DNA of 64,000 nt from Escherichia coli (GCF_050920415.1 NZ_CP169309.1), one strand, 5' to 3'. Shown: positions 46,654 through 48,560, numbered from the stretch's first letter. Numbers and translations are program-made. The notes: generated from the letters alone by a model not told the origin.

Positions 46654-46917
46654 TCAGGCGCGGATTTGTTGTGATGTGGTTGTGCTCTGGCAGATGGCAA
46701 CGTGTGCGACGTCCACCAGTTTATTTAACTGACTAAACAGTAAGTCGACCGACCGTGGGCTGGCAACGGTCAATTCGATATTTATATTTTGTGCATCGCT
46801 GGCGGCGGCCATATTCATTGAGCAGACGTGGAAACCACGATGACGCACCACGCGTAAAACACGTTCTAAGGTTTCCGGATTGAAGCGAGCCGATACATTG
46901 ACCTGATGTTGCATCAT
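46654..46917 (-). CDS. ilvM: Acetolactate synthase II small (regulatory) subunit IlvM
   Basis: 87-aa [90 protein letters not shown]; overlaps ilvG stop by 4 nt. Confidence 0.95.
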
Positions 46918-48560
46918 GATAATTTCTCCAACATTTCTGAATTACTGGCGCCAGGCGGCACCAGCGGCCAGACGTTCTCAAGTTCGTCGATTGAGACATG
47001 AAGCAGGTATGGCCCATCACTGTTCAGCATGGTGTCGAGTGCCGCTTCAACCTGGTCTTTACGGGTGATGTGTTGGCCAGGGATGCCGAAGGCGCTGGCT
47101 AACATGAGGAAATCGGGATTATCGGTAAGGGTGGTTTCGCTATATCGTTCCTGGAAAAACAGTTGCTGCCATTGTCGAACCATCCCTAACCGTTGGTTAT
47201 CGAGTAAGACGATTTTCAACGGTAACTGCTTGCGTTTTACGGTGCCCAGCTCTTGCACATTCATCATGAAAGAGCCGTCACCGGAGATACAGACGACGGT
47301 ATCGTTCGGTCGCGCAACTTGCGCACCAACCGCTGCCGGTAAACCAAACCCCATGGTGCCTAATCCGCTTGAAGTGATGAAATTTTCCGGGCGAGTGTGG
47401 ACGATGTGCTGCGCGGCCCACATCTGGTGCTGCCCTACATCTGTGGTTACTACACAATCTTCAGGTTTACGATCCGACAGTTGTTTTAACAACAACGGCG
47501 CGTAGATAGCATCACCGGGATGGTCATAACGCCAGGCGTGTTCACTACGCATTTGTGCGCAGTGTTGCTGCCAGTCATTGATATTTAACGGCTGCTGTAA
47601 CGCAGGCAACAGCGTGTTTAAATCACCCTGTAATGCCACATGTGCCTGACGCAGCTTGTTCATTTCTGCCGGGTCAATATCCATATGGATAACACTGGCG
47701 TGTGGTGCGAAGGTGTTCAGTTTGCCAGTTACCCGGTCATCAAAACGTGCACCCACGGCGATCAACAAGTCACATTCCTGCACCGCAAAGTTCGCCGCTT
47801 TGGTGCCGTGCATCCCCAGCATGCCCAGATAGTACGGATAATCCGCATCAACTGCGCCAAGTCCTTTCAGCGTGCAGGTGGCAGGCATTTTTGTGGCAGA
47901 GAGAAATTCTCGTAATGCAGGAACTGCCTGCGCCATACCCACGCCACCGCCAACGTACAGCATCGGTTTTTGCGCTTTTGCCAACATCTGGCGCGCTTGC
48001 TCGACTTCGGCATGTGGGAAAGTCACTTCGTTTTCAACGGTGGTGAACCAGGGTTCCAGATCGCCGCTGGCTAACTGGATATCTTTTGGGATATCGACCA
48101 AAACCGGACCGGGACGACCTGAGCTGGCAACTTCGAATGCTTCAGCCATGATGCGCGGCAACTCTTCCATAGACTGTACGAGGAAGCTGTGTTTGGTACA
48201 GGCTAATGACAATCCCAGGACATCAACTTCCTGAAATGCGTCGGTGCCGATGAAGGGAGCGGACACCTGACCGGTGATGGCAACAACAGGGATGGAATCT
48301 AACAGTGCGTCCGCAAGCCCAGTTATCAGGTTGGTTGCGCCCGGACCAGATGTGGCGATACATACGCCAGTTTTGCCGGTAGCACGGGCATAACCGATAG
48401 CCGCCATTGCCGCGCCCTGCTCATGCCGGCACAGCAAGTGCTCCACGCCGCCGTCATACAATGCATCGTAAACCGGCATAATTGCGCCACCCGGATAACC
48501 GAAAACGGTATTCACACCTTGTGTCCGCAACGCATGTACCACCCACTGTGCGCCATTCAT
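46914..48560 (-). CDS. ilvG: Acetolactate synthase II large subunit IlvG, intact reading frame
   Basis: Uninterrupted 548-aa [66 protein letters not shown]...; no frameshift seen. Confidence 0.95.

Follow-up and report, generated by a model that had tools for sequence, protein, structure and literature searches.

Condensation of pyruvate by acetohydroxy-acid synthase (AHAS) is the first common step in the synthesis of valine and leucine and of isoleucine. The frameshift in the ilvG gene of Escherichia coli K-12 and the valine-sensitive phenotype of that strain are textbook knowledge, and the frameshift exerts polarity on ilvEDA. The primary source on this lesion is reportedly Lawther et al. 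1981. Valine inhibits isozymes I and III of AHAS, but not isozyme II (PMC8605374, PMC6483228, PMC7066862), and restoration of the ilvG frame in K-12 MG1655 allowed growth at 1 mg/ml valine (PMC8605374, PMC6483228). An intact ilvG has been reported in E. coli W, B and Crooks (PMC3032704).

We compared these systems with the ilv locus in a 64-kb stretch of E. coli DNA, referred to here as the window. The ilvG pseudogene of MG1655 (b4488; formerly ilvG_1/ilvG_2) shares its locus and operon with the window gene, but ends at codon 328, whereas the window gene reads through to 548 aa. The intact 548-aa genes of E. coli W, B and Crooks differed from the window gene only as alleles. Strains EC42405 and UPEC132 also had an intact 548-aa ilvG in the same operon, with a junction that was undeleted apart from single SNPs at the site of the K-12 lesion. 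The window allele shared 96.8% identity with that of EC42405, the differences being concentrated in a pair of short patches, and 92.7% with that of UPEC132.

More distant relatives were also considered. The large subunit of E. coli AHAS I, IlvB (PDB 6LPI), belongs to the same three-domain ThDP fold family as IlvG and catalyzes the same reaction, and the two proteins aligned over residues 2-544 (E = 7.5e-163). Unlike IlvG, however, IlvB is a paralogous isozyme encoded in a separate operon, is valine-sensitive through its IlvN subunit (PMC6483228), and has Gln at the position of the AHAS II Trp464 (GLVHQQQ versus GMVRQWQ). The plant and fungal AHAS enzymes (for example A. thaliana, PDB 1YBH and 7TZZ) share homologous catalytic motifs, including the QW tryptophan, but are eukaryotic organellar proteins with longer linkers and other regulatory subunits, useful here only as structural templates.

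Based on the analyses described below, we consider, with a probability of roughly 95%, that the window carries an ordinary functional ilvG in a standard ilvL-ilvX-ilvG-ilvM-ilvE-ilvD-ilvA operon, from a wild lineage of E. coli that is most probably cryptic clade I.

The ilvG gene and its product

The gene and the site that distinguishes it from its K-12 counterpart were located as follows.

46914..48560, minus strand: ilvG, encoding the catalytic subunit of acetolactate (acetohydroxy-acid) synthase II; an intact ORF of 548 aa with an ATG start
47583..47584, minus strand: two bases absent from K-12 ilvG (gene nt 977-978, codon 326), identified by pairwise alignment

The ORF list and the sequence gave a protein with the N-terminus MNGAQWV... 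and the C-terminus ...SEMLEKLS. An earlier interpretation of this DNA, the sequence-only reading, had described an uninterrupted 548-aa ilvG frame at these coordinates. Both the ORF and the alignment with K-12 bore this out; the coordinates stand as given, and to them must be added the strand, which had not been stated and is the minus strand.

Several lines of evidence identified the product as IlvG. Against NF006524, the NCBIfam equivalog model of the acetolactate synthase 2 catalytic subunit, the protein scored 1076 bits, 338 bits higher than the cut-off of 738 bits and far above chance level, and the alignment was unbroken, with residues 1-547 on profile positions 1-547 of 548. The three Pfam domains TPP_enzyme_N (PF02776), TPP_enzyme_M (PF00205) and TPP_enzyme_C (PF02775) were present, giving the ThDP architecture of an N-terminal Pyr, a central and a C-terminal PP domain. 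The motifs RHEQG (Glu47), GTDAFQE, MLGMHG, RFDDR, GDGSF...LDNQ (427-456) and QW (Trp464) were all found, and aligned with the same motifs in the solved AHAS structures 6LPI and 7TZZ. Within these motifs, Glu47 is taken as the catalytic Glu and GDGSF...LDNQ as the GDG...N(N/Q) Mg-ThDP motif of AHAS II.

The identical sequence in NZ_CP169399.1 is named ilvG in RefSeq (protein WP_001012646.1). There were records of the exact 548-aa protein on 83 contigs of several origins; both loci among the matches listed had the same gene context, and there were 22 further similar places. The 90%-identity protein cluster into which IlvG fell (46917-48560, minus strand) had a representative of 1041 aa and further members of that length, one of them bearing the name of a CusA/CzcA efflux transporter from Bacteroides faecis. 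These 1041-aa members look like a database or clustering artefact with no biological meaning.

Comparison with the K-12 lesion

The K-12 reference for this comparison was the MG1655 pseudogene (NC_000913.3, 3950560..3952204), which at 1645 nt is set against the 1647 nt of the window gene. Global alignment revealed 92 substitutions in 1647 nt (94.4% nucleotide identity) and one 2-nt gap, the placement of which is ambiguous by 1-2 nt owing to a short AT/TA repeat at that point. At the lesion site the window has TTAAATATCAATG, versus TTAAATCAATG in K-12. Past the gap K-12 reads ...QQPLNQ and then a TGA at codon 328, with the remaining protein in another frame. As both bases at 47583-47584 are present in the window, its ilvG frame stays open, and the two marks of the K-12-type cryptic gene, the 2-nt deletion and the TGA at codon 328, were absent. 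The sequence-only reading had proposed an alignment to K-12 around codons 280-330, and the alignment placed the 2-nt K-12 deletion at codon 326, within that interval.

That reading had also named two circumstances that would undermine it, a compensating indel masking the same frameshift and a sequencing error in a homopolymer run, and neither was encountered. No second indel relative to K-12 was present in the global alignment of ilvG, and all single-base runs in the gene were shorter than 6 nt. In addition, the 13 amino acid differences between the window IlvG and the frame-repaired K-12 protein were scattered, unlike the clustering that a compensated frameshift would produce.

The K-12 lesion has been described as "two separate base pair insertions" (PMC3032704). 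In contrast to that description, our alignments indicated that K-12 lacks two adjacent nucleotides relative to the window, EC42405 and UPEC132. The loss of 2 nt, by which IlvG is cut short at codon 328, is private to the K-12 laboratory lineage, and its absence from the window is ancestral.

Frequency of intact ilvG among complete genomes

The state of the junction alone was scored in 5,426 complete E. coli genomes, with the following outcome.

K-12 deletion junction, 42-mer across the deletion: 340 of 5,426 genomes
Undeleted junction as in the window (A-variant), 44-mer: 3,513 of 5,426 genomes
Undeleted junction with one central SNP, as in UPEC132 (G-variant), 44-mer: 1,237 of 5,426 genomes
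Junction unclassified, with other flanking SNPs, no query: 335 matching genomes

Because the 28-nt megablast seed cannot span either difference, the three sets of genomes retrieved do not overlap, and together the three queries placed 5,090 genomes. At least 4,750 of the 5,426 genomes (87.5%) thus had the undeleted junction, and 6.3% had the K-12 lesion. All 40 of the 40 K-12-junction records that were sampled were K-12-like by name, by O16:H48 serotype or by a genome of 4.45-4.83 Mb, and these genomes look like K-12 derivatives. The undeleted junction is the norm in E. coli, and an intact ilvG is not unusual.

The ilv operon, leader and attenuator

The remaining features of the operon were assigned as follows.

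42243..43787, minus strand: ilvA (near-identical RefSeq record)
43790..45640, minus strand: ilvD (near-identical RefSeq record)
45705..46634, minus strand: ilvE (near-identical RefSeq record)
46654..46917, minus strand: ilvM, AHAS II small subunit, 87 aa (NCBIfam NF008362, 133.9 bits; Pfam ACT_5)
48563..48613, minus strand: ilvX, 16-aa peptide ORF directly upstream of ilvG (near-identical RefSeq record; identical to K-12)
48580..48869, minus strand: ilv leader transcript region, Rfam RF02744 (Rev39_5p_UTR; cmscan, 157.1 bits)
48644..48679, minus strand: attenuator terminator, a G+C-rich hairpin, AAGACCCCCGCACCGAAAGGTCCGGGGG, followed by T8 (identical to K-12)
48700..48798, minus strand: ilvL, 32-aa leader peptide MTALLRVISLVVISVVVIIIPPCGAALGRGKA (NCBIfam NF007744, 81.9 bits; Pfam PF08046, IlvGEDA_leader)
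48820..48900, minus strand: promoter-proximal region upstream of ilvL, 81 nt (5 of 81 nt differ from K-12)

The gene order matched that of K-12. The TGA stop of ilvG and the ATG of ilvM share an ATGA overlap, in agreement with the overlap noted earlier, and with the ilvLXGMEDA context this translational coupling of ilvGM supports the assignment of the gene as ilvG. The IlvM protein was identical to that of K-12. The segment that starts some 52 nt before the ilvL ATG and runs to the ilvG ATG, and so includes ilvL, the attenuator and ilvX, was 100% identical to K-12, and the claim that leader and attenuator are intact is therefore upheld base for base. Leu, Ile and Val codons accounted for 15 of the 32 codons in ilvL.

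When the leader was folded (201 nt, -70.2 kcal/mol, z = -4.3), the terminator hairpin formed in the MFE structure as well as in the centroid structure. A simple terminator scan of the minus strand did not report the ilvL attenuator because its stem is interrupted, and our attenuator call rests on the folding and the identity to K-12 in place of that scan. The match to RF02744 (E = 1.4e-48; gathering score 88) extended over model positions 1-300 of 300. Since the family covers the ilvL leader and attenuator end to end, RF02744 corresponds, in E. coli, to the classical ilvGMEDA attenuator. The full name of RF02744 is "Soft rot Enterobacteriaceae Rev 39 5'UTR".

The 81-mer of the promoter-proximal region occurred exactly in 36 complete E. 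coli genomes and at 95-99% identity in 3,162 more; a sampled K-12 strain, NBRC 3301, was 93.8% identical to it. Based on these counts the variant is a natural polymorphism, close to the majority form in natural strains.

Lineage of the window and other loci

Across the whole 64 kb the window was 95.9-97.1% identical to K-12. A 21.6-kb piece showed about 95.5-96% identity with practically all complete E. coli genomes, irrespective of phylogroup, the records sampled including IAI39 and O157:H7 and O145 strains, and only 2 of 5,426 genomes reached 99% identity or more over that length. Positions 26601-64000 of the window, on the other hand, were 98.9% identical to EC42405 over 37.4 kb. EC42405 is given as a complete genome of cryptic clade I, and the same source puts ANI at more than 98.3% within clade I and more than 95.9% for clade I against E. 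coli sensu stricto (PMC10100065). The identities found for the window (98.9% to EC42405 and 95.5-96% to mainstream genomes) are consistent with these thresholds at the level of the window. The combination of 98.9% identity to EC42405 and about 96% to other E. coli makes an origin in Escherichia cryptic clade I the most probable one, as a window-level estimate.

Two further ORFs distinguish the window from K-12.

3085..5112, plus strand: hypothetical 675-aa ORF between lptM (yifL) and cyaY (DKNYY match, PF13644, E = 0.004, sub-threshold)
38803-39252, plus strand: yifN, 149-aa PemK/MazF-like toxin ORF between rep and ppiC (PF02452, E = 7.5e-11)

The extra gene that had been remarked on at cyaY-yifL is real and corresponds to the 675-aa ORF. 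The Pfam scan gave nothing for it beyond the sub-threshold DKNYY match, and PADLOC gave no match. The full-length ORF was present in 5 of 5,426 complete genomes, and K-12 retains a remnant of about 20%, yzcX ("DKNYY family protein" in RefSeq). Since in other strains this site is occupied by DKNYY and DUF3304 genes distinct from this one, lptM-cyaY is a variable locus. The yifN gene is intact in the window, but is a pseudogene with a 1-nt frameshift in K-12; the annotation contained no antitoxin gene adjoining it. Between ilvY and ilvA, which are convergent, K-12 has a REP-like palindrome (about 59 nt) that is missing from the window, in which the ilvY and ilvA coding regions overlap by 4 nt (42243-42246) and IlvY is one residue shorter than that of K-12. 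The yifN, REP-element and lptM-cyaY differences from K-12 agree with the assignment of the window to a non-K-12, clade I lineage.

The near-identical RefSeq record used for the operon genes, that of E. coli MFDS1022581 (NZ_CP169399.1), shared 99.97% identity with the window, and its annotation of the operon comprises ilvL, ilvX, ilvG, ilvM, ilvE, ilvD and ilvA. An in-frame (ACCTGC)n repeat in hemX (11271-11282) has two more units in the window than in that genome. The remaining differences between the two were 1-nt indels and SNPs in the rRNA operon (52687-56638) and SNPs at 25751 and 57478.

Predicted function and valine response

IlvG is predicted to be the ThDP/FAD/Mg-dependent catalytic subunit which, together with the ACT-domain small subunit IlvM, would form acetohydroxy-acid synthase II. 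This enzyme would condense pyruvate with pyruvate or with 2-ketobutyrate, and the ilvL leader, rich in Leu, Ile and Val codons, would set its expression through translation-coupled attenuation. The IlvM of K-12 must be competent, as frame-restored MG1655 grows at 1 mg/ml valine (PMC8605374). From its sequence this IlvG allele is expected to be enzymatically active and, by analogy with the literature on isozyme II, the strain is expected to produce a valine-resistant AHAS II and to grow when valine is present. We also predict that the strain is free of the K-12-type polarity of ilvG on ilvEDA.

The comparison of ilvG with the frame-repaired K-12 gene gave a dN/dS of 0.048 (14 non-synonymous and 78 synonymous changes), a value that is a signature of purifying selection. 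Five substitutions (A13T, L131M, D143E, A316T and L337M) occurred only in this allele among the nine Escherichia sequences sampled, and none of the five lies inside the motifs listed above.

Alternative explanations

We considered whether the open frame might be an artefact of sequencing or assembly, the true frameshift being hidden by an erroneous or a compensating indel. Indel errors do occur in long-read assemblies, and the window differs from NZ_CP169399.1 by several 1-nt indels in the rRNA operon. Against an artefact, NZ_CP169399.1, an independent RefSeq assembly, is 100% identical to the window over 46600-48900. The sole gap relative to K-12 falls exactly on the known lesion, ilvG lacks any homopolymer of 6 nt or more, the HMM alignment is continuous over residues 1-547 with the amino acid differences scattered, and the exact 548-aa protein is found on 83 contigs of several origins, with the same gene context at both loci listed. 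Such an artefact is exceedingly improbable, and we rejected both a compensated frameshift and a homopolymer error on the strength of the single gap, the lack of a long run, the identical assembly and the 83 contigs. It is just as improbable that the window derives from K-12 with its ilvG frame restored, either as an ilvG+ (formerly "ilvO") revertant or by engineered repair. The leader, attenuator, ilvX and IlvM are indeed identical to those of K-12, and K-12 under selection readily yields frame-restoring mutations (PMC8605374). In the revertants described in that study, however, single-nucleotide deletions at the TGA reopen the reading frame, and the two wild-type bases are not regained (PMC8605374). 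Furthermore, the window has 92 substitutions inside ilvG (94.4% identity), shares only 95.9-97.1% identity with K-12 across all 64 kb but 98.9% with the clade I strain EC42405, has an intact yifN and a full-length lptM-cyaY gene, and lacks a K-12 REP element. Of the two origins offered by the sequence-only reading, that from a non-K-12 lineage is supported, and that as an ilvG+ revertant was rejected on the basis of the 92 ilvG substitutions and the divergence of about 4% across the window.

A different possibility is that ilvG is intact and yet the strain has no working valine-resistant AHAS II, either the substitutions in the allele or the promoter polymorphisms having impaired activity or expression. 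In its favor are the 13 amino acid differences from K-12, five of them restricted to this allele in a small sample, and the five substitutions in the promoter-proximal region. Against it, the dN/dS is low (0.048), the catalytic and cofactor motifs are kept, the same allele is found on many independent contigs, the equivalog score is 338 bits over its cut-off, and the promoter variant recurs without change in 36 genomes and at 95-99% identity in a further 3,162 natural ones. We regard such impairment as improbable, albeit less so than an artefact or a K-12 revertant, and retain an ordinary functional ilvG as the preferred reading.

Mosaic structure of ilvG and the inter-domain linker

The differences between the ilvG genes of the window and of EC42405 were concentrated in two places, with 25 in gene nt 301-450 (48111-48260) and 20 in nt 901-1050 (47511-47660), compared to 0-5 differences per 150 nt in the rest of the gene. 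The second patch takes in the inter-domain linker (aa about 306-347), and the K-12 frameshift falls within this linker as well. The sequence of the linker varies across IlvG proteins of Escherichia, and its alignment to AHAS I and plant AHAS is gapped. The window ilvG is thus mosaic relative to that of EC42405, a pattern suggestive of short tracts of recombination and of a linker that tolerates change. That short-tract recombination or relaxed constraint is acting within ilvG is offered tentatively, as a speculation that we think somewhat doubtful.

Significance

The intact ilvG of the window is what is expected in a wild strain; it is already known, and K-12 is the exception. The significance that had been attached to the open frame was too generous, as the undeleted gene is the norm. 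Its value is mainly one of annotation, in that the gene should be labeled ilvG (functional) and not as a pseudogene, which RefSeq does automatically (WP_001012646.1). One useful by-product is the probable assignment to clade I, a lineage that is rare among complete genomes. If the speculation regarding the linker is correct and it is a tolerated hypervariable segment, this would account for the many frame-restoring indels in K-12 that yield an active enzyme, and the segment would be a hotspot of recombination or variation.
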